Positions 1-30,499 are shown, numbered from the stretch's first letter. The stretch: 32,000 nt of DNA from Trichodesmium erythraeum IMS101 (GCF_000014265.1 NC_008312.1:7110001-7142000); one strand, 5' to 3'. Numbers and translations are program-made. The notes: generated from the letters alone by a model not told the origin.

Positions 1-2276
1 AAGAGAAGGAGCGGCAAAGAAAAGAGAAGGAGCGGCAAAGAAAAGTAGAGGAACAAGCAGCAAGAATATTAGGAATGCTTTCTGACTCAATGATCAGACA
101 AAAGCTATCTTTACTTGATAAAGGTGTATTACTGAGCGTGGAGTCAATGAAGCAATACTTTGATATCAAAAAACGTTATGGAAAAGCTGACTCGGGCCTA
201 CTTGTTGAACTGGATCAAACTCTACGGAATGGAGTAAGTCAACTACCCAAGCATCTCTATACTCTCAAACACCAGTCCGATGTATATGCAGTAGCCTTTA
301 GCCCCGACGGCAAAACCATTGCAACTGCAAGTTTAGACAAAACCGCCCGCCTCTGGGATACTGAGAATGGCAATGTATTAGCTACTCTCAACCACCAGTC
401 CTCGGTAAATGCAGTAGCCTTTAGCCCCGACGGCAAAACCATTGCAACTGCAAGTTATGACAAAACCGCCCGCCTCTGGGATACTGAGAATGGCAAAGAA
501 TTAGCTACTCTCAACCACCAGGACTGGGTAAATGCAGTAGCCTTTAGCCCCGACGGCAAAACCATTGCTACTGCAAGTTATGACAAAACCGCCCGCCTCT
601 GGGATACTGAGAATGGCAAAGAATTAGCTACTCTCAACCACCAGTCCTCGGTAATAGCAGTAGCCTTTAGCCCCGACGGCAAAACCATTGCTACTGCAAG
701 TTCTGACAAAACCGCCCGCCTCTGGGATACTGAGAATGGCAATGTATTAGCTACTCTCAACCACCAGGACTGGGTAATAGCAGTAGCCTTTAGCCCCGAC
801 GGCAAAACCATTGCAACTGCAAGTTCTGACAAAACCGCCCGCCTCTGGGATACTGAGAATGGCAAAGTATTAGCTACTCTCAACCACCAGTCCTCGGTAA
901 ATGCAGTAGCCTTTAGCCCCGACGGCAAAACCATTGCAACTGCAAGTTCTGACAAAACCGCCCGCCTCTGGGATACTGAGAATGGCAAAGTATTAGCTAC
1001 TCTCAACCACCAGTCCTCGGTAAGAGCAGTAGCCTTTAGCCCGGACGGCAAAACCATTGCAACTGCAAGTTATGACAAAACCGCCCGCCTCTGGGATACT
1101 GAGAATGGCAATGTATTAGCTACTCTACTCCACCAGGACTTGGTAATAGCAGTAGCCTTTAGCCCCGACGGCAAAACCATTGCTACTGCTAGCTGGGACA
1201 AAACCGCCCGCCTCTGGGATACTGAGAATGGCAAAGTATTAGCTACTCTCAACCACCAGTCCTCGGTAAGAGCAGTAGCCTTTAGCCCGGACGGCAAAAC
1301 CATTGCAACTGCAAGTTCTGACAAAACCGCCCGCCTCTGGGATACTGAGAATGGCAAAGTATTAGCTACTCTCAACCACCAGTCCTCGGTAAATGCAGTA
1401 GCCTTTAGCCCCGACGGCAAAACCATTGCAACTGCAAGTTCTGACAAAACCGCCCGCCTCTGGGATACTGAGAATGGCAAAGTATTAGCTACTCTCAACC
1501 ACCAGTCCTCGGTAAGAGCAGTAGCCTTTAGCCCGGACGGCAAAACCATTGCAACTGCAAGTTCTGACAAAACCGCCCGCCTCTGGGATACTGAGAATGG
1601 CAAAGTATTAGCTACTCTCAACCACCAGTCCAGGGTATTTGCAGTAGCCTTTAGCCCCGACGGCAAAACCATTGCTACTGCAAGTTCTGACAAAACCGCC
1701 CGCCTCTGGGATACTGAGAATGGCAATGTATTAGCTACTCTCAACCACCAGTTCTGGGTAAATGCAGTAGCCTTTAGCCCCGACGGCAAAACCATTGCAA
1801 CTGCAAGTTCTGACAAAACCGCCCGCCTCTGGGATACTGAGAATGGCAAAGTATTAGCTACTCTCAACCACCAGTCCAGGGTATTTGCAGTAGCCTTTAG
1901 CCCCGACGGCAAAACCATTGCTACTGCAAGTTCTGACAAAACCGCCCGCCTCTGGGATACTGAGAATGGCAAAGAATTAGCTACTCTCAACCACCAGTCC
2001 TTGGTAAATGCAGTAGCCTTTAGCCCGGACGGCAAAACCATTGCTACTGCAAATTATGACAATACCGCCCGCCTCCATTGGGCAACGTCAGAAGGCTTAA
2101 TTCAAGAAGCTTGTAGTCGTCTCAGTCGGAATTTAACCGCAAAGGAATGGCAGCAGTATATCAACAGCGACTTGGAGACATATCAGAAAACTTGCGAAAA
2201 CCTTCCCGTTCATCCGAGTGTAACTGCAGAAGCTGCGCTAACCTCCTCAGACCAAACCCTTTGGTTTGACCTTTGA
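1..2276 (+). CDS. WD40-repeat protein, 3' portion (frame open to the left window edge; N-terminal domain not visible)
   Basis: Frame 3 has no stop from nt 3 (EKERQRK EKERQRK VEEQAARILG precede the first Met at 75), so the true start is probably left of the window. There are 14 complete and 1 divergent 41-aa units, HQxxVxAVAFSPDGKTIATASxDKTARLWDTENGxxLATLN (SPDG...WD signature). The C-terminal tail SRNLTAKEWQQYI...YQKTCENLP is of the kind seen at the ends of cyanobacterial WD40 proteins. Stop TGA at 2274-2276. Confidence 0.9.
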   Translation, partial: EKERQRKEKERQRKVEEQAARILGMLSDSMIRQKLSLLDKGVLLSVESMKQYFDIKKRYGKADSGLLVELDQTLRNGVSQLPKHLYTLKHQSDVYAVAFSPDGKTIATASLDKTARLWDTENGNVLATLNHQSSVNAVAFSPDGKTIATASYDKTARLWDTENGKELATLNHQDWVNAVAFSPDGKTIATASYDKTARLWDTENGKELATLNHQSSVIAVAFSPDGKTIATASSDKTARLWDTENGNVLATLNHQDWVIAVAFSPDGKTIATASSDKTARLWDTENGKVLATLNHQSSVNAVAFSPDGKTIATASSDKTARLWDTENGKVLATLNHQSSVRAVAFSPDGKTIATASYDKTARLWDTENGNVLATLLHQDLVIAVAFSPDGKTIATASWDKTARLWDTENGKVLATLNHQSSVRAVAFSPDGKTIATASSDKTARLWDTENGKVLATLNHQSSVNAVAFSPDGKTIATASSDKTARLWDTENGKVLATLNHQSSVRAVAFSPDGKTIATASSDKTARLWDTENGKVLATLNHQSRVFAVAFSPDGKTIATASSDKTARLWDTENGNVLATLNHQFWVNAVAFSPDGKTIATASSDKTARLWDTENGKVLATLNHQSRVFAVAFSPDGKTIATASSDKTARLWDTENGKELATLNHQSLVNAVAFSPDGKTIATANYDNTARLHWATSEGLIQEACSRLSRNLTAKEWQQYINSDLETYQKTCENLPVHPSVTAEAALTSSDQTLWFDL
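270..2075 (+). repeat. Tandem 123-bp (41-codon) WD40 cassettes, 14 complete plus a 15th divergent
   Basis: The CAC CAG (HQ) unit starts recur at 270, 393, 516 ... 1992 with an exact 123-bp period. Units are near-identical at the nucleotide level. Confidence 0.95.
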
Positions 2277-3855: not shown

Positions 3856-4737
3856 TACCTTTTAAAAGCCCAGATTAACTAATAATATTTTCATCCATAG
3901 AATTAATTCTAATTAGGAATTGCCCATTAAACCCAAAGGCACTTAAATATAATAACTTTAGCCTTCGTATCAGGAAAAAAAGTAGAATTTTTTTAGATTA
4001 TCAAACCAAAAATATCAGTATTTTAAGCAGACAAAGCTAGAAAAATTAAGAGATAAATTTCCAACTACATCCTCTGTAATTCCTTTAACTCTATACAGAC
4101 ATTCTATAGAAAGCCCCTATCTACTTTTGACTACCACCTTCAACCATAAGACAAACTTCAGCAAACCCTAATTACAGCATCAGATCGGATATGAGATATA
4201 CAAAAAATCAATAGTCAAACTATTGTATTATAGGCATCTTATACCAATACCAACTTACTTTAAAGACGTCACAAATAGTTGCCAACTTTAAATGTAAAAT
4301 AATTTCCTAAAATCACTGAGAGCATCAAAGACTTAAGCATATAAACCTTAAACTTTTAAATTTAAATGCATCACCTCCGTGAAACAGTCTTAGCCCCTAA
4401 AATTGTGCCTTACCAGCAAGAGAAATGCTGTATCAAACCCCTAATAAACTGATAGTAAAATAAATAACAGTAGATTCAACATTAACGTGATATAATCCGA
4501 AATAAATATATTTTTTATTTATTCTCTATTTTCTGATCCATCTTCCCTAATACCTAGGAAATTTATATGTAAAGTCCCTAAGTATTCCCTATCCCCTAAA
4601 ACCATCAATATTATGTATTATATCAAGTATAAAATTGCAAATTAGCAATAGACAAAACTTAGGCAAAATTCTTATAGAAATAATGAATTTATGCAACTTT
4701 TGTTTAACTTTTGACTTTTAAGTTTTGAGTGAAAATA

Positions 4738-5364
4738 ATGTCTGAATGGATTGAAATTGGTAAAATTGTTGCACCTCAAGGTTTGAAAGGAGACTTACGA
4801 GTATATCCTAGCTCAGACTTTCCAGAAAGATTCACCGAACCCGGAAAAAGGTGGTTATTATCACCGGGTCAAGTAGAACCGATATCTATCGAATTACTGA
4901 GTGGTCGTTATGTTCCTGGTAAAGGGTTATATGTAATAGAATTAGCAGGAATTAAAAGCCGCCAACAAGCTGAAGCATTAAGAAATAGCCAGTTATTGAT
5001 TGAAAAAGGCGATCGGCCTCAACTTGAAGCTGATGAATTTTATGTACCAGACTTAATTGGTTTAACAGTTATTAATCAATTAAACGGGAAAACTATTGGC
5101 AAAGTTATTAATATTATTTTTGCAGGAAATGACTTATTAGAAGTCGAAAAAATCTCTACAGATACCCCTGTTATTTCTGAAGTTGTTGAAAATAATTTAC
5201 CTTCAAAAAGTAAGAGAAGTAGAGACACAAAGAATCAGAAAAAAAATCAATCCCCCCCATCAAAAAAAATTCTAATTCCCTTTGTCAAAGAAATTGTACC
5301 GATAGTTAATTTTGAACAAAGTATCATTGAAATTACTCCTCCTGATGGCTTAATTGACCTGTAA
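4738..5364 (+). CDS. rimM: 16S rRNA processing protein RimM
   Basis: WIEIGKIVAPQGLKGDLRVYPSSDFPERF at the N-terminus, then GRYVPGKGLYVIELAGIKSRQQAEALR and DEFYVPDLIGLTV, match the RimM barrel and PRC-barrel pattern. ATG at 4738 is preferred over the GTG at 4729 used in the ORF track. There is a lysine/serine-rich insertion before the C-terminal strand. Confidence 0.85.
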   Translation: MSEWIEIGKIVAPQGLKGDLRVYPSSDFPERFTEPGKRWLLSPGQVEPISIELLSGRYVPGKGLYVIELAGIKSRQQAEALRNSQLLIEKGDRPQLEADEFYVPDLIGLTVINQLNGKTIGKVINIIFAGNDLLEVEKISTDTPVISEVVENNLPSKSKRSRDTKNQKKNQSPPSKKILIPFVKEIVPIVNFEQSIIEITPPDGLIDL

Positions 5365-5521
5365 TATTATTTGACAGATATTTGACAGAAGTTAACACCA
5401 TCCTTACCCCGTAAGAGGAGAAATTATGCATTAATAAATTAAGATATTATCAGCTCAAAACTTTGACAACCTCAGTAATTTTAGGAAATCATTTCACACA
5501 TTATATTTTGAAACTATAACC

Positions 5522-5785: not shown

Positions 5786-6250
5786 TCAAATTAGCTGAAA
5801 TTCCTGAACAGCAGGTAAAAAATTTTTATTTTCATGGTTAGAACGACTAAGTTTAATCAGAACAAACCTTTGTAGTGGCGTCAGATTTTTCCATTGATCT
5901 AACTTAATTTTAATACCTACTTCTTGTGCTTTTTTCTGAACTATTTCTGGAATTTTAGTCTCATCCATCCAAGCCGGATTTTTTTCAACAGATAAATCTT
6001 TAGCAGGAGTATCTGTATGGTCAATTACTAACTGATGTAGCCATACTCGATAACTTTGAATTTCTTCTAATTTACTGCAAGGTTTATTCACTAACTCTTG
6101 ACGAATTAAATGATTAAATTGATGCCAGTGGGATAATTTTAATTTTACTCCACAGGTATCTAATTTATAGCGTACTATCATAGGAATACACCGTAAAGAT
6201 TCTACAAAGTCTTGCTCAAAATCAAAATAATTTTCACTCATATATATCAT
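5786..6250 (-). CDS. Small conserved protein, probably nitrate-reductase-associated family (Nitr_red_assoc-like); product call tentative
   Basis: 154-aa ORF. The N-terminal FDFEQDFVESLRCIPMIVRYKLDTCGVKLKLSHWHQF matches my recollection of the cyanobacterial nitrate reductase associated protein family. Start is either ATG 6250 (MIYM) or ATG 6241 (MSENY). Confidence 0.6.
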   Translation of the reverse strand: MIYMSENYFDFEQDFVESLRCIPMIVRYKLDTCGVKLKLSHWHQFNHLIRQELVNKPCSKLEEIQSYRVWLHQLVIDHTDTPAKDLSVEKNPAWMDETKIPEIVQKKAQEVGIKIKLDQWKNLTPLQRFVLIKLSRSNHENKNFLPAVQEFQLI

Positions 6251-6464
6251 GTTCCTATTCTATAATTATTTGTAAAAGTTGAGAAATATCTACAAAGTCT
6301 TGCTCAAAATCAAAATAATTTTCACTCATATATATCATGTTCCTATTCTATAATTATTTGTAAAAGTTGAGAAATATCTACAAAGTCTTGCTCAAACTCA
6401 AAATAATTTTCACTCATATATATCATGTTCCTATTCTATAATTATTTGTAAAAGTTGAGAAATA
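6201..6464. repeat. 88-bp tandem triplication covering the start codon, first ~13 codons and 47 bp upstream of the 5786..6250 gene
   Basis: Units at 6201-6288, 6289-6376 and 6377-6464. Copies 1 and 2 are identical; copy 3 differs by one base (A to C). Confidence 0.95.
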
Positions 6465-6905
6465 TCTACCTTATATTTAAGATTTTTCTCAAACTCAAAG
6501 CTTCTTCCTATTTCATGACTACCCAATAACTAAAGTGTTCTTCTTTACCTCCATTATAAAATACTGATGTCACCAAATTTTATATTATACCAAAGGTGAA
6601 AAAAGAATACAGATCTAAGCCAAATATCAATTTTAATAATGATATTAAATTTGTTATTTTTTTTTGCGACTAACAGTAAAAATATCTGCTCATATAAATC
6701 TCATCATAATCAACCCAATAGAAGCAGAAATTCCCAACATAAAATTATAGTTTTTGACTGAATATAGTCCAGATGAAAACCTTCCAAAGAGTATATTCCG
6801 GATAAAATTTTCATAGCTTACTATTACTATAATTTTTTATTTCATATAGTATTTTTTTTTGATAGTTGATAGATAAAAAATTTCATCAAAAACTATCCCT
6901 GATTT

Positions 6906-7707
6906 ATAAATAAATTTCTGTAGATAAATTTCTGTAGATAAATTTCTATAGATAAATTTCTGTAGATAAATTTCTATAGATAAATTTCTGTAGATAAATT
7001 TCTGTAGATAAATTTCTGTAGATAAATTTCTGTAGATAAATGTCTGTAGATAAATTTCTGTAGATAAATTTCTGTAGATAAATTTCTGTAGATAAATTTC
7101 TGTAGATAAATTTCTGTAGATAAATTTCTGTAGATAAATGTCTGTAGATAAATTTCTATAGATAAATGTCTGTAGATAAATGTCTGTAGATAAATTTCTG
7201 TAGATAAATTTCTGTAGATAAATGTCTGTAGATAAATTTCTATAGATAAATGTCTGTAGATAAATTTCTGTAGATAAATTTCTGTAGATAAATGTCTGTA
7301 GATAAATGTCTGTAGATAAATGTCTGTAGATAAATGTCTGTAGATAAATTTCTGTAGATAAATGTCTGTAGATAAATGTCTGTAGATAAATTTCTGTAGA
7401 TAAATTTCTATAGATAAATGTCTGTAGATAAATGTCTGTAGATAAATTTCTGTAGATAAATTTCTGTAGATAAATGTCTGTAGATAAATTTCTGTAGATA
7501 AATTTCTGTAGATAAATTTCTGTAGATAAATGTCTGTAGATAAATTTCTGTAGATAAATGTCTGTAGATAAATGTCTGTAGATAAATGTCTGTAGATAAA
7601 TTTCTGTAGATAAATGTCTGTAGATAAATGTCTGTAGATAAATTTCTGTAGATAAATGTCTGTAGATAAATTTCTGTAGATAAATTTCTGTAGATAAATT
7701 TCTGTAG
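6906..7707. repeat. 14-bp minisatellite TAGATAAAT(T/G)TCT(G/A), 56 complete units
   Basis: Complete units run 6921-7704 (56 x 14 = 784 bp) with degenerate edges. 34 units carry T and 22 carry G at unit position 10; 5 units end in A. I cross-checked the unit order against the periodic E/D, K/T, N/H pattern of the antisense ORF translation. Confidence 0.97.
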
Positions 7708-9121: not shown

Positions 9122-9454
9122 GTTTGAGGTAATTAATAGTAGGTGGTGCAGTGGGAATTTAAGAGTTAAACTAAAAAATGTACTCAACAATGTAATTTTG
9201 GTAGTCCTACTCCTGTAGGTTTAGCAATGCCTAGTAAAGGCTGCCCAACCCCAAAACCAAAATAATGACAATAGACCACCCAATGCACCACAAATATATT
9301 TCCCTTACCCCAAAATAGTAGTTGCTTGGCATTTTCGCCCTGGAAAAATATGAAAGTGCCGTTACATAAGATTTTATCTATCTGAAACACGACTATGGCA
9401 GACAAGATGGTCGTGCTACAGAGAGTCAAAAAGCTTCTCACCCCCTAAACAACC

Positions 9455-10912
9455 TCAGTTGATAACATTTTCATTGTACCGCTCGCCGTCTATATCCACC
9501 TCTACTCTCAAGGTTACTGTAAACTGATCCCGAATATAACCCATCATTGTACCATACCAAGCAGAAATACCCAGAGGTCAAATGTGATCGAGCAAAGCCT
9601 GCAATAAAGTTAAGGTCAGAAAATTATTTTCGCGATCAAAACATTTAATACACTGCGCAACCGTTCAACTACTGCAAAATGACAATTAAATTTAACTGAG
9701 TCAACATGCTATCCACCCGATCAACATCTTCTCCCACCTCTTCTACAAACAAAATTTTCCCTCACCAGTCTGGCAAAAAATTCGAGCCCATCATCCCTGC
9801 TAACACAGACAAGTTTCCCCCCAGTAGTCGACCCCTTCCTTTTCCATCTGTGATAGTTTCCGCAATATTTCTAGGAGCTTGTCAGCTCATCGCTTTTTCT
9901 TGGCAAAATGACAACTAAATTTAACTGAGTCAACATGCTATCCACCCGATCAACATCTTCTCCCACCTCTTCTACAAACAAAATTTTCCCTCACCAGTCT
10001 GGCAAAAAATTCGAGCCCATCATCCCTGCTAACACAGACAAGTTTCCCCCCAGTAGTCGACCCCTTCCTTTTCCATCTGTGATAGTTTCCGCAATATTTC
10101 TAGGAGCTTGTCAGCTCATCGCTTTTTCTTGGCAAAATGACAACTAAATTTAACTGAGTCAACATGCTATCCACCCGATCAACATCTTCTCCCACCTCTT
10201 CTACAAACAAAATTTTCCCTCACCAGTCTGGCAAAAAATTCGAGCCCATCATCCCTGCTAACACAGACAAGTTTCCCCCCAGTAGTCGACCCCTTCCTTT
10301 TCCATCTGTGATAGTTTCCGCAATATTTCTAGGAGGTTGTCAGCTCATCGCTTTTTCTTCAAACAGTATATCTTTGAGATAAGCAACAGAAAATTTATTC
10401 CAGATAGATGTAGCAGAGGAACCGTGAAATGTCACCAGACCACTGCCAGGATATATTGCCAATAATAGAGCAGTAATATCGCTGTAGTCGATGATAATTT
10501 TAGGATTTTTCCGAATTAAGTTATAGTTTAATAATGATAAGATACGACTGCTACCCCAACCACTTCTGCTTGTTATCAATGCTTTGACCTCCTCATCCGC
10601 AAACATAGTATTAATATCTGCTGCACAGTCTATATCCTTACCTGCTAAATATCCATATTTATCGAGAGTATGGGTAGCAACTTTGACTTTTAATTTTTGT
10701 TTACTTAAAATCAAGTTTATATATTTAAGTTCGTGTTTAAAAGCTATGCTGGTAAAACTAACTAATGCTACGGTATCACCAACTTTAAAGCGGGTTGCTT
10801 TCAGCATGGGTAAAGGCGATACTGCTGATATAATGATTTGGAAATGGTTATTTATAGCAGTAACTTTGGTCGTCAATAAACTTAGACCTAGAAATTTTAA
10901 AAAGTAACGGCG
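9455..10912 (-). pseudogene. LD-carboxypeptidase (peptidase S66, LdcA-like) pseudogene with an internal tandem triplication
   Basis: The minus-strand N-terminal half reads RRYFLKFLGLS (Tat-like signal with no ATG in frame after the upstream stop), then KVGDTVALVS, GYLAGKD, SRSGWGSSR, DYSDITALLLA and LVTFHG. Continuing through the repeats it reads GRLLGGNLSVLAGMMGSNFLPDW*GKILFVEEVGEDVDRVDSML, with in-frame TGA stops. The distal part reads PLGISAWYGTMMGY...TVTLRVEVDIDGERYNENVIN, stop at 9455-9457. Several stops and frame changes are present. Confidence 0.8.
9674..10359. repeat. 229-bp tandem triplication inside the ldcA-like pseudogene
   Basis: Units at 9674-9902, 9903-10131 and 10132-10359. 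I saw only two single-base differences. 229 is not a multiple of 3. Confidence 0.95.
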
Positions 10913-11261
10913 ATGGTTAATTTTCTGGGAAAAGTTAGATGAGAATTAACTGAGTTCAGCAAGCAGCAGGAAGAATAGAAAACAATCATAATATTACTAC
11001 ATATTATGCCAGAAAAATAAATTGTTTACAAAATTTGCTCTTTGATGAATAGCTACTAATATTTATTCAGGATGAAGTACTCAGGAGTCATAATAAATAG
11101 TTTAAATATTATTTTATTGGTATAAATTTCTTTTTTTAATCAAAGGTAAATCAGATAGAATATAATTTTTATATCCCGATAATTGGCAACATTTTTTTCA
11201 GGAAAAAATCGTATTAATTTTGAGATGAAATAAGCAGTAAATTTACTAAGAAATAATCAGC

Positions 11262-12686
11262 ATCTTAATTTTGAATATTCAGAATTTATTATGATGATTT
11301 TTTCATAATAGCGAAACTAAAATTAATAATAATTACTATGAGATATTTCCTCTAAATAATGAGTATATTAATTTTGAGTTGCCAGAATTTATTGTGATTA
11401 TTTTTTCACAATAGCAAAACTGAAATTAACAATAATTACTATGAGATATTTTCTCTAAATAATGAATATATTAATTTTGAGTTGCCAGAATTTATTGTGA
11501 TTATTTTTTCACAATAGCAAAACTGAAATTAACAATAATTACTATGAGATATTTTCTCTAAATAATAAATATATTAATTTTGAGTTGCCAGAATTTATTG
11601 TGATTATTTTTTCATAATAGCGAAACTAAAATTAATAATAATTACTATGAGATATTTTCTCTAAATAATGAATATATTAATTTTGAGTTGCCAGAATTTA
11701 TTGTGATGATTTTTTCATAATAGCAAAACTAAAATTAATAATAATTACTATGAGATATTTTCTCTAAATAATGAATATATTAATTTTGAGTTGCCAGAAT
11801 TTATTGTGATGATTTTTTCATAATAGCGAAACTAAAATTAATAATAATTACTATGAGATACTTCCTCTAAATAATGAATATATTAATTTTGAGTTGCCAG
11901 AATTTATTGTGATTATTTTTTCACAATAGCAAAACTGAAATTAACAATAATTATTATGAGATACTTCCTCTAAATAATAAATATATTAATTTTGAGTTGC
12001 CAGAATTTATTGTGATTATTTTTTCATAATAGCAAAACTAAAATTAATAATAATTACTATCAGATATTTTCTCTAAATAATGAATATATTAATTTTGAGT
12101 TGCCAGAATTTATTGTGATGATTTTTTCACAATAGCAAAACTAAAATTAACAATAATTATTATGAGATATTTCCTCTAAATAATGAGTATATTAATTTTG
12201 AGTTGCCAGAATTTATTGTGATTATTTTTTCACAATAGCAAAACTGAAATTAACAATAATTACTATGAGATACTTCCTCTAAATAATGAGTATATTAATT
12301 TTGAGTTGCCAGAATTTATTGTGATTATTTTTTCACAATAGCAAAACTGAAATTAACAATAATTACTATGAGATATTTCCTCTAAATAATGAGTATATTA
12401 ATTTTGAGTTGCCAGAATTTATTGTGATTATTTTTTCACAATAGCAAAACTGAAATTAACAATAATTACTATGAGATAATTCCTCTAAATAATGAGTATA
12501 TTAATTTTGAGTTGCCAGAATTTATTGTGATTATTTTTTCACAATAGCAAAACTGAAATTAACAATAATTACTATGAGATATTTTCTCTAAATAATGAAT
12601 ATATTAATTTTGAGTTGCCAGAATTTATTGTGATTATTTTTTCACAATAGCAAAACTGAAATTAACAATAATTACTATCACTTAAT
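11262..12686. repeat. 103-bp tandem array, about 13.8 copies, intergenic and AT-rich
   Basis: The GAGTTGCCAGAATTT motif recurs at 11376, 11479, 11582 ... 12612 with an exact 103-bp period. A degenerate first unit starts at 11273, and the last unit is truncated at about 12686. Each unit contains the hairpin TATTGTGA-N8-TCACAATA. Confidence 0.95.
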
Positions 12687-25207: not shown

Positions 25208-25593
25208 CGCGGGATAGAGCAGTCTGGTAGCTCGTCGGGCTCAAGTTATAGGGAAAGATAAATTAAACCAAGTGTAAATCGAAACCGCTATTGGTTTAGC
25301 TTGAATCTTTACCTTGTAAGGGGCGGCATATAAGGAAACTTATATGTGATTACTTGTCAAATTCGGGGAAGCCGTTAGCGGGGTAATCCCGAGCCAAGCT
25401 CCAAAGTTAAAAGGAGAAGGTGTAGAGACTGGTTGGCAGGTACTCTAACAGTTCTATTTTAGTTTTATAGAAGCTGAGGGTAAAGGGACAGTCCAGACCA
25501 CAAACTAATTCTAATATTTTTAGAGTTAAGGCAGTTAAAGCTGTAGTGGTAAGCATAACCCGAAGGTCGGTGGTTCAAATCCGCCTCCCGCCA
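25208..25593 (+). tRNA. Initiator tRNA-Met (CAU) interrupted in the anticodon loop by a group I intron
   Basis: Exon 1 is 25208-25241, CGCGGGATAGAGCAGTCTGGTAGCTCGTCGGGCT. Exon 2 is 25554-25593, CATAACCCGAAGGTCGGTGGTTCAAATCCGCCTCCCGCCA. Joined, they fold as a 74-nt cloverleaf with three G-C pairs closing the anticodon stem and an unpaired 1:72 (C/C); both are initiator hallmarks. CCA is not encoded. Confidence 0.93.
25242..25553 (+). ncRNA. Group I intron (IC3-like), 312 nt, no ORF
   Basis: The core GTCAAATTCGGGGAAGCC...CCCGAGCCAAGCTCC...GAAGGTGTAGAGACTGG...GAGGGTAAAGGGACAGTCCAGACC closely parallels the conserved core of the Azoarcus and Anabaena tRNA introns. The 5' exon ends in U and the intron ends in G. 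A shared CA dinucleotide leaves the boundaries ambiguous by 2 nt. Confidence 0.88.
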
Positions 25594-27997: not shown

Positions 27998-30499
27998 CTA
28001 TACAAAATTGAACTGATTTGTATCTAAATCCATACCTTTTAGCCCTCTAACAATAGCAATTAGTTCATTATCACCGTTGTCATTGTTACTATAAATAGCT
28101 TTTCCAGTAGGTAATCCAGAAACATTGTTCTCAATAGTATAGTCAGAAATACTACCATATAGTTGAATCCGATCCCCTTGAGCACCATTAAAACCAAGAA
28201 TCATAGCGTAATCTTCTGTACCATTATCATCATAGTAAACCTGACCAACCTGAGCATGACCTAAGATAAATGAATCAGCACCAGAACCGCCATGCAAAAT
28301 ATCTATCTCACTATTGCCAGGTTGAGTAGCAGTTAAATCGACTCCTATAAGAGTATCTGCACCCTTTCCACCCTTAAGAATATCGTTACCAGTACCACCA
28401 GTGAGTACATCGTTACCAAGTTGCCCGTATAATTCGTCATTGCCTGCATCACCGTTCAGTGCGTCGGCATCCTTTCCTCCTTTAAGGGTATCATCATTAT
28501 CTCCACCATTGAGAGTATCAATACCATTACCACCATTGAGGGTATCATTACCATTGCCTCCGTTCAGTTCGTCGGCATCGTTTCCTCCTTTAAGGATATC
28601 ATCATTATCTCCACCATTGAGAGTATCAATACCATTACCACCTTCGAGGATATCATGACCACTACCTCCGTTAAGTTGATCGTTACCAGGTTGCCCGTAT
28701 AATTGGTCATTGCCTGCATCACCGTTCAGTTCGTCGGCATCGTTTCCTCCTTTAAGGATATCATCATTATCTCCACCATTGAGAGTATCAATACCATTAC
28801 CACCATTGAGGGTATCACTACCGCTACCTCCGTTAAGTTGATCGTTACCAGGTTGCCCGTATAATTGGTCATTGCCTGCATCACCGTTCAGTTGGTCGGC
28901 ATCTTTTCCTCCTTTAAGGGTATCATCATTATCTCCACCATTGAGAGTATCAATACCATTACCACCTTTGAGGGTATCATTACCACTACCTCCGTTAAGT
29001 TGATCGTTACCAGTGGAGCCCATCAGTGAGTCATTGTCCACTTCACCATTGAGAACATCGTCACCAGCTCCACCATTAATAGTGTCCTGGCCGTCGCCTC
29101 CAGACACAGTATCATCACCTGCTAAAGCTTTAATGTTGTTAGCAGTAGAATCTCCAGTGAGGTTATCGTCACCAGAAGTAGGAACATTTGGAGTAGGCTC
29201 TGGTGTAGGTGCGGGAGTAGGCTCTGGTGTAGGCGCGGGAGTAGGCTCTGGTGTAGGTGCGGGAGTAGGCTCTGGTGTAGGTGCGGGAGTAGGCTCTGGT
29301 GTAGGCGCGGGAGTAGGCTCTGGTGTAGGTGCGGGAGTAGGCTCTGGTGTAGGTGCGGGAGTAGGCTCTGGTGTAGGTGCGGGAGTAGGCTCTGGTGTAG
29401 GTGCGGGAGTAGGCTCTGGTGTAGGTGCGGGAGTAGGCTCTGGTGTAGGTGCGGGAGTAGGCTCTGGTGTAGGTGCGGGAGTAGGCTCTGGTGTAGGTGC
29501 GGGAGTAGGCTCTGGTGTAGGTGCGGGAGTAGGCTCTGGTGTAGGTGCGGGAGTAGGCTCTGGTGTAGGTGCGGGAGTAGGCTCTGGTGTAGGTGCGGGA
29601 GTAGGCTCTGGTGTAGGTGCGGGAGTAGGCTCTGGTGTAGGTGCGGGAGTAGGCTCTGGTGTAGGTGCGGGAGTAAGCTCTGGTAATTCGTCACTGACTA
29701 CATCTAGTTTGACGTTTTCGGAATTAACTTGAACTTGATAAGTTGCTGTATCGCCTGCCTGACCATTCTGATCTAGATCACCAGAGAAGGTGACATCGTA
29801 AGTTACATTTGGGTCTACATCTAAACTATAACCACCTGCATCTAGAGTAGTGGTAGTAAAAGTATTAGCACTATTAGTAGTATCAACTGCCGTAACTGTT
29901 ATCCCTTTTATTCCTTCACCGACTGTATAGAAATCGTCATTATTAACAGCATCAGTATAGGCCACACCTGTAATAAATGGGCCACGATCCCCAGAAAAAG
30001 CAAATTTTTGGGTAGTCATGACTGCGTTGTAATTTTCGAATTGTCCCTGTAGCGAAGAGATTCCGACTTCCTTAAAGTTACCACTCATCAGGTTTCTCCG
30101 ATGACCCGGACTGACGAATAGGTTTTTGTGGTTACCCTCCACAAAAGTGGTTAAGTCTGGCGTACCTGTTGTTCCCCTGTAAGCGATATTTTCCCCAGTA
30201 GACCAGGGAGGTGCGAGGACATACCCCGCAGCCTGCATACGTTGGGTGGGGCTGCTACCACCTTCTCCTGTGTGACTAAATACGTTATTATTTAGCATCC
30301 ATTGACTATGATCTTGAGCAGCACTATGGAGTTCGAAATTAAATACTAGAGGTTGTTTGGCATCGGTGGAAATTGTATTTGAAGGAAGTCCTTGATTTAG
30401 GTCTCCATTTAGATATAAATCAGCTTCTCCTTGAGGATTTGCTCGACCTCTGTTTACCAATTCGAGCATATATTGGTCTTGAGCAGTGGGTTGTGTCAT
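27998..30499 (-). CDS. Secreted-type multidomain protein: N-terminal CAP/SCP (PR-1-like) domain, (PAPTPEPT)n linker, RTX calcium-binding nonapeptide repeats
   Basis: 833 aa. CAP-like motifs: [46 protein letters not shown]. About 20 PAPTPEPT repeats. Dozens of GGxGxDxL nonapeptides organised in 54-aa super-repeats. There is no N-terminal signal peptide, which fits type I secretion. Confidence 0.9.
28453..29010 (-). repeat. RTX nonapeptide region with 162-bp (54-aa) super-repeats
   Basis: CGTTCAGTTCGTCGGCATCG... recurs at 28561 and 28723, with a close variant (CGTTCAGTTGGTCGGC) at 28885, giving a 162-bp spacing. A shorter 108-bp step precedes it, from 28453. Confidence 0.85.
29190..29690 (-). 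repeat. 24-bp perfect tandem repeat x20 (+ partial) encoding PAPTPEPT
   Basis: GGAGTAGGCTCTGGTGTAGGTGCG is repeated from 29190. Only two copies differ (GGC for GGT, synonymous). The unit has 15 of 24 G+C in an otherwise AT-rich window. Confidence 0.97.

Follow-up and report, generated by a model that had tools for sequence, protein, structure and literature searches.

In Podospora anserina, the HET-E, HET-D and HNWD proteins possess WD40 units that are nearly identical in DNA both within and between loci, that are exchanged between repeats and between loci, and that vary in number; strong positive selection falls on four codons of the unit, forming two pairs that each flank a conserved residue and mapping to the interaction surface of the propeller (PMC1805685; PMC2873952). 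In bacteria, the highly repetitive WD40 proteins, defined by an internal identity of at least 0.7, likewise have their residual diversity at predicted interaction hotspots (Hu et al., 2017, PMC5587647), and it has been proposed that the repeats of bacterial NLRs ‘might similarly’ diversify (Dyrka et al., bioRxiv 10.1101/2020.01.06.895854). In the cyanobacterium Trichodesmium erythraeum IMS101, three WD40-bearing metacaspases with 14, 15 and 15 repeats have been reported, and Tery_2471 is among those listed (Jiang, 2010, PMC2853523). Here, we describe a gene at the left end of a 32,000-nucleotide (nt) stretch of the IMS101 genome (GCF_000014265.1, NC_008312.1:7110001-7142000; this whole stretch is called the window below, and positions are counted from its first letter) that encodes an array of near-identical WD40 blades differing almost only at canonical contact positions. 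We consider it probable that the window holds the C-terminal half of an NLR-like gene with the organization caspase/nSTAND1/linker/15-blade WD40/tail, in which the propeller array is a sensor with reshuffled contact residues.

The likeness of this array to the fungal HET-E/NWD proteins and to highly repetitive bacterial WD40 proteins had been suggested when the sequence was first inspected; its regime indeed matches both, so that the pattern is not unique to this locus. The selected pairs of HNWD, viz., 7/9 around residue 8 and 25/27 around residue 26, have counterparts here in positions 4/6 around V5 and in position 22 (joined by 24 in paralogues) around D23. The fungal proteins differ in combining a NACHT NTPase with a HET-domain effector, as against the nSTAND1 NTPase and caspase-like peptidase predicted here, and the present array differs from theirs in belonging to a bacterium with no repeat-induced point mutation and in having an invariant position 24. 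Further, allorecognition and cell death are demonstrated functions in Podospora, whereas for the Trichodesmium gene they are candidate functions.

Two other systems are comparable in their overall architecture. Apaf-1, with its CARD, NB-ARC and 15 WD40 repeats folded into 7- and 8-blade propellers, also places about 15 blades after a STAND NTPase, senses a protein ligand and licenses a caspase; it differs in recruiting the caspase via CARD rather than being fused to it, in having divergent rather than homogenised blades and in the clade of its NTPase. The nSTAND1/NACHT sensors diversified by diversity-generating retroelements (DGRs), which deploy peptidase or TIR effectors in multicellular bacteria including cyanobacteria, likewise bear a hypervariable C-terminal sensor on an nSTAND1-type NTPase (Dore, 2024, PMC10907252). 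However, their variation is written by error-prone reverse transcription at adenines, as opposed to the cassette recombination proposed below, and their sensor has a C-type lectin fold rather than a WD40 fold. Thus, the regime is already known from fungi and from highly repetitive bacterial WD40 proteins, and the caspase-WD40 proteins of Trichodesmium have been catalogued; what is added here is bacterial evidence at the level of a locus, namely allelic variation at the hot codons, the sharing of tracts, chimeras with paralogues and an excess of GC at third codon positions (GC3).

The WD40 array and its variable positions

A single tandem array with a period of 123 bp spans 260-2075 of the window (14.8 copies, 94% matches, zero indels; Tandem Repeats Finder, TRF). 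Cut at 270, it resolves into 14 complete in-frame cassettes of 41 codons on the plus strand at 270-1991, each encoding one blade, with cassette i beginning at 270 + 123(i-1). The near-identity of these 123-bp units, which was the starting point of the original prediction, is evident from a mean pairwise identity of 94.5% in nucleotides and 91.4% in amino acids (minimum 0.854); cassettes 6 and 10 are duplicates of each other, as are 9 and 11, leaving twelve distinct cassettes in a unique order. The array is embedded in the 3' part of an open reading frame (ORF) on the plus strand (3..2276, 757 codons and a stop) that is open from nt 3 to the TGA at 2274-2276 and comprises a linker, the WD40 array and a C-terminal tail. 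This ORF runs off the left edge of the window, and hence the 5' part of the gene lies outside it; its listing from an internal ATG at 75 is a mechanical call only.

The count of fourteen units given by the original prediction holds for complete cassettes, but the strands add up to 15 blades' worth. Immediately before the first cassette lies the d-like strand HLYTLK (252..269, plus strand), which resembles VLATLN, the strand d of every cassette, and after the fourteenth comes a partial cassette with strands a-c (1992..2075, plus strand; HQSLVNAVAFSPDGKTIATANYDNTARL), which keeps the register for 28 codons before giving way to the unique tail and departs from the consensus at codons 4, 12, 18, 21, 22 and 24. 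Judging from the sequence, HLYTLK is the probable ‘velcro’ strand that completes the blade of this fifteenth cassette, in a region that is modelled with low confidence (predicted local distance difference test score, pLDDT, below 50 at residues 84-86).

Across the 14 full cassettes, amino acid differences are confined to unit positions 3 (S/D/F), 4 (D/S/W/L/R), 6 (Y/N/I/R/F), 22 (L/Y/S/W), 35 (N/K) and 36 (V/E), together with a single change at 41 (N to L), and the other 34 positions are invariant, precisely as had been claimed. The residue pairs listed earlier for positions 3/4 are also all correct, except that SL comes from the partial fifteenth cassette and not from the full ones. At the DNA level, 19 of the 123 columns vary, and the six hot codons, with their 18 columns, account for 12 of these (hypergeometric P = 4.5e-8). 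Codons 3, 4, 6 and 22 alone are multi-state; codons 35 and 36 have two states each, one nucleotide apart, and are dimorphic markers rather than hypervariable sites.

The contrast in rates between the scaffold and the hot codons is pronounced. The 34 scaffold codons hold five sites that vary only synonymously (codons 12, 18, 20, 21 and 40) and none that vary nonsynonymously, giving proportions of nonsynonymous (pN) and synonymous (pS) differences of 0 and 0.053, respectively, as against a pN of 0.349 for the six hot codons (Nei-Gojobori); synonymous divergence between cassettes, therefore, does not match that at the hot codons, and hot pN exceeds scaffold pS by a factor of 6.6. By a test based on counts, rather than on a likelihood site model, at least 21 changes have occurred at the six hot codons, where 2.9 would be expected at the synonymous rate of the scaffold (minimum spanning trees; Poisson P = 6e-12). 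On the codon minimum spanning tree over eight hot codons, 20 of the 23 steps are nonsynonymous, and the differences often involve more than one nucleotide (TCC/GAC, TCG/GAT, TCT/TGG). The nonsynonymous excess falls on codons 4 and 6 around V5 and on codon 22 before D23; codon 24 varies only in the paralogous arrays.

These figures bear on the simplest alternative, viz., that the array is young and drifts neutrally, having been amplified recently, with six codons that merely encode an unconstrained surface and with neither diversifying selection nor a recognition function. The identical cassettes do point to very recent duplications, highly repetitive WD40 proteins in general have been read as young duplications (Hu et al., 2017, PMC5587647), and the hot positions are loop or edge residues, many of them a ‘default’ Ser or Asn. 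However, neutrality predicts a ratio of at most 1, whereas the six codons change at about seven times the scaffold synonymous rate, mostly nonsynonymously and by multi-nucleotide steps. Along with the allelic evidence presented below, this renders drift an unlikely account of the array as a whole, although for positions 35 and 36 specifically it may be the appropriate one.

The identification of the cassettes as WD40 blades, which the original prediction had made from the sequence, agrees with several independent results. The Pfam WD40 model (PF00400) recognises 15 stretches (E = 4.9e-178; score 570 bits, cut-off 27), and an AlphaFold model (32 sequences; mean pLDDT 88.9, predicted template-modelling score, pTM, 0.56) has four strands in each cassette: a at codons 4/5-10/11, b at 16-21, c at 25-30 and d at 36-41. 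It further contains three helices in the linker before the propeller and two after it, and the low pTM may reflect uncertainty in how the propeller units and the helical ends are positioned with respect to each other. The closest relative in the PDB is 2YMU, a highly repetitive 14-blade propeller from Nostoc punctiforme (phmmer E = 9e-220; Foldseek E = 2.7e-48), followed among structural matches by the designed WRAP-T propellers and Apaf-1 (Foldseek E = 5e-33). His1, Ser21, Asp23 and Trp29, invariant in all 14 cassettes, would correspond by sequence to the residues of the DH[S/T]W tetrad (PMC3419727).

The same study provides a rule for the top-face hotspots of WD40 propellers: where strand a begins, the motif (V/L/I)-R1-R2-(V/L/I) identifies R1, the residue two places before R1 is R1-2, and D-1 is the one that directly precedes the Asp of the tetrad (PMC3419727). 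Applied to V5-N6-A7-V8 and D23, it assigns position 6 to R1, position 4 to R1-2 and position 22 to D-1, so that, by sequence, 4, 6 and 22 are predicted to be canonical top-face hotspots of the WD40 fold; position 3 is the residue of the d-a loop adjoining hotspot position 4. Positions 35 and 36 lie at the end of the c-d loop and at the first residue of the outer strand d, i.e., at the bottom or outer rim. The earlier placement of the variable residues on the ligand-binding top face, thus, stands for 4, 6 and 22 and does not extend to the merely dimorphic 35 and 36. This mapping combines predicted secondary structure with a published sequence rule rather than a computed solvent exposure, and in the same vein the closure of the blades and their division into propellers of 7 and 8 blades would be expected from the strand count. 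A duplicated 7-blade propeller was also considered and ruled out: the hot residues show no 7-blade periodicity.

With an internal identity of 0.914 and diversity at R1-2, R1 and D-1, the array belongs to the highly repetitive WD40 class as defined above, and the confinement of variation to hotspots is generic for arrays of this class: in 12 highly repetitive arrays of other bacteria, positions 3, 4, 6, 22 and 24 are again the most variable ones. The Nostoc protein shares with the present one its 14-15 blades in tandem propellers, the repeat consensus and about 54% identity by Foldseek (PMC5587647). It differs in having blades of 42 residues with a different c-d loop, seen as a one-residue gap in the alignment, in that no N-terminal effector is known in the solved construct, and in that the published work does not cover allelic variation at the population level.

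Alleles, paralogues and probable exchange between cassettes

The allelic comparison draws on independent contigs from natural populations, with flanks 96-98% identical to the window. They are short-read assemblies through whose repeats chimeric paths are possible; L018 is the contig most at risk, and the junction-proximal differences of L021 and L022 are the safest. In both of the latter, the partial fifteenth cassette is variant at hot codons. That of L021 differs from the window solely at codon 4 (Leu to Ser), and that of L022 at codon 4 (Trp), codon 6 (Lys) and codons 20-22, which read GCT-AGC-TGG. This last combination of two linked synonymous variants with Trp22 is otherwise found only in cassette 8 of the window. 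In L018, sequence of the window type is interrupted over at least 90 nt (2053-2142) by a tract that encodes residues matching the tail of Tery_2471. The most divergent case is L015, with flanks 96.4% identical to the window and 3' cassettes only 77-85% identical to any window cassette; judged by its sequence, it is a non-homogenised allele of the same locus. In this contig (ENA ERZ27286976 k119_959852; locus at 4031-5407 on the reverse strand), the 3' cassettes vary among themselves and include indels (e.g., HELWLVAVTFSPDGK…, HEDSAIALAFSPDGKTIVTGS…), the 5' cassettes are of the homogenised type, and the nitrate-reductase-associated protein is identical to that of the window locus.

Evidence of exchange is also found in the combinations of variants themselves, with all four gametes occurring at 35 of the 66 informative pairs of sites, some of which lie only a few nucleotides apart. 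The proposal of cassette shuffling that accompanied the first description of the array is thereby strengthened on three counts: the four-gamete result, the multi-codon tract shared between alleles, and the recurrence of the same hot positions in paralogous arrays. The first of these points to exchange rather than duplication alone, and the different residues at hot positions among alleles of one locus, despite their near-identical flanks, likewise speak against neutral drift in a young array.

The paralogues show the same pattern. Tery_2471 of the same species shares the scaffold of 34 residues without a difference, varies at the same positions and also begins with a cassette of the SD-Y type, though the order of its cassettes is different and its C-terminal tail is longer and different, like that of the paralogue L002. 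In the arrays of L002, L003 and L004, positions 3, 4, 6, 22 and 24 carry 1.2-2.7 bits of entropy, with the exception of position 6, which is invariant in L004, and nearly all scaffold positions have zero entropy; position 24, as noted, is invariant in the window array. The number of cassettes is 14.7 in the window, 13.7 in the paralogue Tery_2471, about 2 in L001 (possibly a collapse) and at least 9 in L004 and L015, where the contigs end; no two complete alleles of one locus are among these.

The scaffold itself appears to have been homogenised recently, since its pS within the array (0.053; overall scaffold distance 0.013) is well below that between orthologues for the single-copy sequences, viz., the linker (0.135), the tail (0.18-0.28) and the downstream TPR gene (0.30). 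Across L002, L003 and L004, which represent different loci and different species of Trichodesmium, the scaffold consensus is identical in DNA or, in L004, at most four scaffold-codon bases apart, and the third-position distance of the scaffold between the window and these arrays (0.056-0.094) is below the synonymous divergence of single-copy flanks (0.14-0.30). This sharing of scaffold DNA across loci could stem from inter-locus conversion or from selection on the DNA sequence itself. A test of concerted evolution by whether cassettes cluster by array failed, in that the distances between arrays are not above some of those within arrays; purifying selection on the shared scaffold, therefore, contributes alongside conversion. 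GC3 reaches 0.49 in the array, whereas SecA, the TPR gene and the linker have 0.23-0.35 and the part of L009 that encodes the caspase and nSTAND1 has 0.27; overall GC is likewise 0.49, with 0.25-0.41 elsewhere. GC-biased gene conversion could account for such an excess, but so might other processes.

The origin of the variation by a dedicated mutator deserves comment, as the array had originally been described as showing ‘targeted’ hypervariability. The variation is indeed confined to six codons, but this implies no targeted mutator, and none was found. Trichodesmium does carry DGRs, and such elements diversify nSTAND1/NACHT sensors in multicellular bacteria (PMC10907252), so that a DGR or similar element writing variation into the six codons would not be without precedent. 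Nevertheless, the ORFs of the window include no reverse transcriptase, no pair of template and variable repeats was seen, and the substitutions are not adenine-specific (TCC>GAC, TCG>TGG/AGG/GAT, TCT>TGG/TTA). Moreover, the targets described in that study are C-type-lectin folds rather than WD40 propellers; here, the variable codons recur in every cassette instead of being restricted to one variable region, and the variants move as tracts with linked synonymous markers, which is a signature of conversion. We accordingly give targeted mutagenesis practically no credence.

A different concern is that misassembly of a near-perfect repeat set of 1.8 kb determined the number and order of cassettes and part of the mosaic. 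Every short-read assembly of the locus breaks inside the array (L004, L009, L015-L024), and the roughly two repeats of L001 might be a collapse. In the window, however, the ORF is intact and the twelve distinct cassettes stand in a unique order, and the last 1.5 cassettes together with the junction are reproduced exactly by four independent contigs (L016, L017, L019 and L020); this independent support covers the 3' end, the order of cassettes 1-13 being known from the window assembly alone. Fifteen blades also fit the counts reported for the family in IMS101, i.e., WD40(14), (15) and (15) (PMC2853523), and the other long tandem arrays of near-perfect repeats that the window resolves suggest that its assembly was finished or based on long reads. 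The per-position pattern is independent of the order of cassettes, and we regard an artefact as a very improbable source of this pattern and of the 3' end.

The missing N-terminus and the candidate function

The region between the missing NTPase domain and the propeller is a helical linker (3..251, plus strand; AlphaFold helices 2-33, 35-59 and 64-78) in which a Pfam scan found zero matches. A perfect 21-bp tandem duplication within it (window 1-45, plus strand; 2.1 copies by TRF) encodes EKERQRK twice and is absent from the relatives L009 and L001. At the other end, the C-terminal tail of 66 residues (2076..2273, plus strand; HWATSEGLIQEACSRLSRNLTAKEWQQYINSDLETYQKTCENLPVHPS...), with two predicted helices at 696-706 and 713-720, has no family in the Pfam scan. 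However, 594 representative proteins contain a match to it (E <= 0.001), in most cases close to the C-terminal end of a chain of 1000-2000 amino acids (aa). The tail, with the pattern …EGLIQEACxRLxRNLTxxEWxQYI…TC…PVHPS, would thus seem to represent a conserved but undescribed module at the C-terminus of STAND-like proteins that bear repeats.

Relatives supply a view of what precedes the linker. The syntenic orthologue L001, from the Trichodesmium metagenome-assembled genome (MAG) MAG_R04, has the same downstream TPR gene (about 84% nucleotide identity) and is continuous through an nSTAND1 domain (E = 7.8e-87), a linker 91.4% identical in nucleotides, about two WD40 repeats (1463-1870, plus strand) and the same kind of tail; it is cut before the effector part, and its source names the protein ‘peptidase C14, partial’. 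Its short array may be a short-read assembly collapse or a real, inactive repeat-loss allele. Inactive alleles that have lost repeats occur in het-d and het-e.

The full-length paralogue L002 (MAG_R02) contains Peptidase_C14 (E = 7.3e-10), nSTAND1 (E = 1.3e-112) and about 16 repeats, along with a transmembrane-like segment and the motifs FFAGHG and LDCCFSG. The closest 5' sequence is that of L009 (GBRTRLIN201; protein P0122), which is 96.3% identical in nucleotides to window 17-340 and encodes Peptidase_C14 and nSTAND1 before stopping at a contig break inside the first repeat. The 90% cluster of P0122 also contains Tery_2471 (P0246, ABG51681.1, 1481 aa; annotated as peptidase C14 caspase p20), which comprises a caspase, nSTAND1, the same linker, 13 full and one partial cassettes and the longer, different tail mentioned above; both proteins possess the FFAGHG and LDCCFSG motifs of the His/Cys dyad of Peptidase_C14. 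In L009, a gene for a phytochelatin-synthase-like papain-fold peptidase (9233-9967, plus strand; PF05023, E = 6.5e-69) lies 34 nt upstream of the caspase-nSTAND1-WD40 paralogue on the same strand and may be co-transcribed with this gene of the Tery_2471 type.

We also considered L009 and Tery_2471 as the orthologous 5' half of the present gene but do not take this as established, given a linker identity of only 96.3%, the different tail, and the presence in the same T. erythraeum MAG (GCA_018457135.1) of L016, in which the 153 nt of the ORF that directly precede the tail match the window without exception and only 4 of 5022 downstream positions differ from it. As L009 and L016 occur in the same MAG and their tails differ, Tery_2471 is most probably a paralogue at a different locus rather than an allele of the window gene. 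No contig extending this exact gene leftwards was found: the genome scan gave orthologues and paralogues only, and a metagenome scan with the linker peptide gave no relative. A metagenome scan with the tail gave one close contig, L010, which starts at the end of the array, and a protein search with the linker and first cassette returned only short WD40 fragments and the window's own C-terminal fragment (P0325). Based on the relatives, we have high but not complete confidence that the missing N-terminus consists of a Peptidase_C14 (caspase) domain followed by an nSTAND1 NTPase. The earlier surmise of a STAND and effector portion beyond the window edge is, thus, borne out by L001 for nSTAND1 and by Tery_2471/L009 and L002 for both domains.

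These observations can be accommodated by the following scenario. Cassettes would frequently undergo unequal recombination and gene conversion in short tracts, both inside the array and with paralogous arrays such as that of Tery_2471, and these processes would homogenise the scaffold, alter the number and order of cassettes and reshuffle a pool of contact-residue variants, with selection retaining or favouring diversity at the contact residues. The ligand recognised by the top faces of the propellers could then be a variable one, for instance a damage cue or a non-self protein from a phage or another source. Its binding would release oligomerisation driven by nSTAND1 and the proximity activation of the fused caspase-like protease, potentially culminating in cell death or proteolytic signalling in this filamentous, colony-forming cyanobacterium. 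The ligand-sensing function that triggers a protease or cell death is here put forward as a candidate. A more specific version holds that the locus and its paralogues are a bacterial counterpart of HET-E/HET-D, i.e., a germline receptor repertoire diversified by conversion, with no dedicated mutator, that detects proteins of phages or foreign strains and fires a fused caspase; we offer this only tentatively, and consider it doubtful as it stands.

An alternative function would be that of a non-immune scaffold or signalling protein, with multivalent docking of endogenous partners and the differences between blades reflecting different docking sites. WD40 propellers are generic interaction scaffolds, and WD40-containing Ser/Thr kinases exist in cyanobacteria. 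The gene also lies among housekeeping genes, no curated defence system matched, and the literature examined gave no experimental link of cyanobacterial caspase-STAND-WD40 proteins to immunity. However, interfaces with endogenous partners are normally conserved between strains, whereas here near-identical strains carry different contact codons in their last cassette, the 3' cassettes of one allele are wholly different, and the number of cassettes differs between paralogues. In addition, the combination of a caspase, a STAND NTPase and repeats is the architecture of death and immunity receptors (PMC8195603; PMC10907252). We therefore hold a purely endogenous scaffold to be improbable, more so than neutral drift.

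Several points nonetheless weigh against reading the gene as an NLR-like receptor with a reshuffled sensor. The N-terminus lies outside the window, so that relatives are the source of the proposed architecture; no defence island surrounds the gene, its neighbours being housekeeping genes, PADLOC gave generic matches only, and the function is inferred. The hot positions are the least constrained of any WD40 blade, and even if no positive selection acted one would expect them to vary somewhat in excess. Ser or Asn occupies many of the hot positions, four of the 14 cassettes are ‘blank’ (SS-N/S), and the diversity is below that of the paralogous arrays. With regard to homogenisation, the scaffold distance from the window to L002 (0.028) is smaller than that within L002 (0.037), and cassettes do not cluster cleanly by array. 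Finally, the short-read allelic contigs are possibly chimeric through the repeats, and the two-repeat array of L001 is a possible collapse.

Genomic surroundings and biological meaning

The genes around the array encode a TPR protein, RimM, the nitrate-reductase-associated protein, an epimerase, an LD-carboxypeptidase, a PurN-like formyltransferase, a GNAT protein, SecA, a dihaem cytochrome c, a metallo-beta-lactamase fold protein, RsfS, an asparaginase and an RTX/CAP protein. A defence island was ruled out on account of these housekeeping neighbours, and PADLOC matched nothing beyond a generic caspase model, in L002, and, spuriously, some repeats. Within the array, no Rfam family and no tRNA were detected; antisense ORFs at 578-1057 and 1070-2041 were set aside as by-products of the repeat. 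A terminator-like hairpin overlapping the last codons of the ORF (2247..2269, plus strand; a 10-pair stem with 3 G-C pairs) is a weak consensus match to which we attach no functional weight.

The window contains four other long tandem arrays of near-perfect repeats. Outside recognisable coding sequence there are an AT-rich array of 13.9 units of 103 bp (11251-12678), with a small inverted repeat per unit, and one of 57 units of 14 bp (6910-7707). Arrays of three 229-bp units (9674-10359) and 3.1 88-bp units (6201-6469) abut or overlap the ends of Pfam-positive ORFs on the minus strand at 10340-10876 and 5786-6250, respectively. The short-read contigs of the locus break at the 88-bp and 14-bp arrays as well as in the WD40 array. 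The gene for a CAP/SCP-domain protein of 833 aa with at least 10 RTX nonapeptide repeats (27998-30499, minus strand) holds a perfect repeat of 20.6 units of 24 bp (29190-29684) and 162-bp repeats (28560-29013). Additionally, a group I intron was identified at 25305-25514 on the plus strand, with flanks extending to about 25597 (Rfam RF00028, 61 bits, E = 2e-13). Directly 3' of it, the sequence (..gcataacccgaaggtcggtggttcaaatccgcctcccgcca) resembles a tRNA 3' half whose anticodon would be CAU; ARAGORN reports no tRNA at this site, where a tRNA gene interrupted by the intron is probable.

Among the nitrogen fixers of the ocean, Trichodesmium is a major one, and its blooms collapse by caspase-like programmed death; the metacaspases with WD40 repeats in IMS101 have so far been listed rather than studied in detail. 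If recognition does take place on a rapidly reshuffled propeller surface, then death is more likely to be triggered by a variable ligand of biotic origin than by an abiotic stress, and the hot residues mark where mutation or the swapping of cassettes could probe its recognition. Should the HET-like interpretation prove true, the metacaspase-associated collapse of Trichodesmium blooms would be tied to biotic non-self recognition. More generally, the locus provides bacterial support, at the level of both sequence and population, for an idea hitherto based on analogy with fungi, namely that high conservation between repeats is at once a cause and a consequence of rapid diversification, and it points to a recombination-based alternative to DGR-mediated hypervariation of sensors on the same nSTAND1 chassis.

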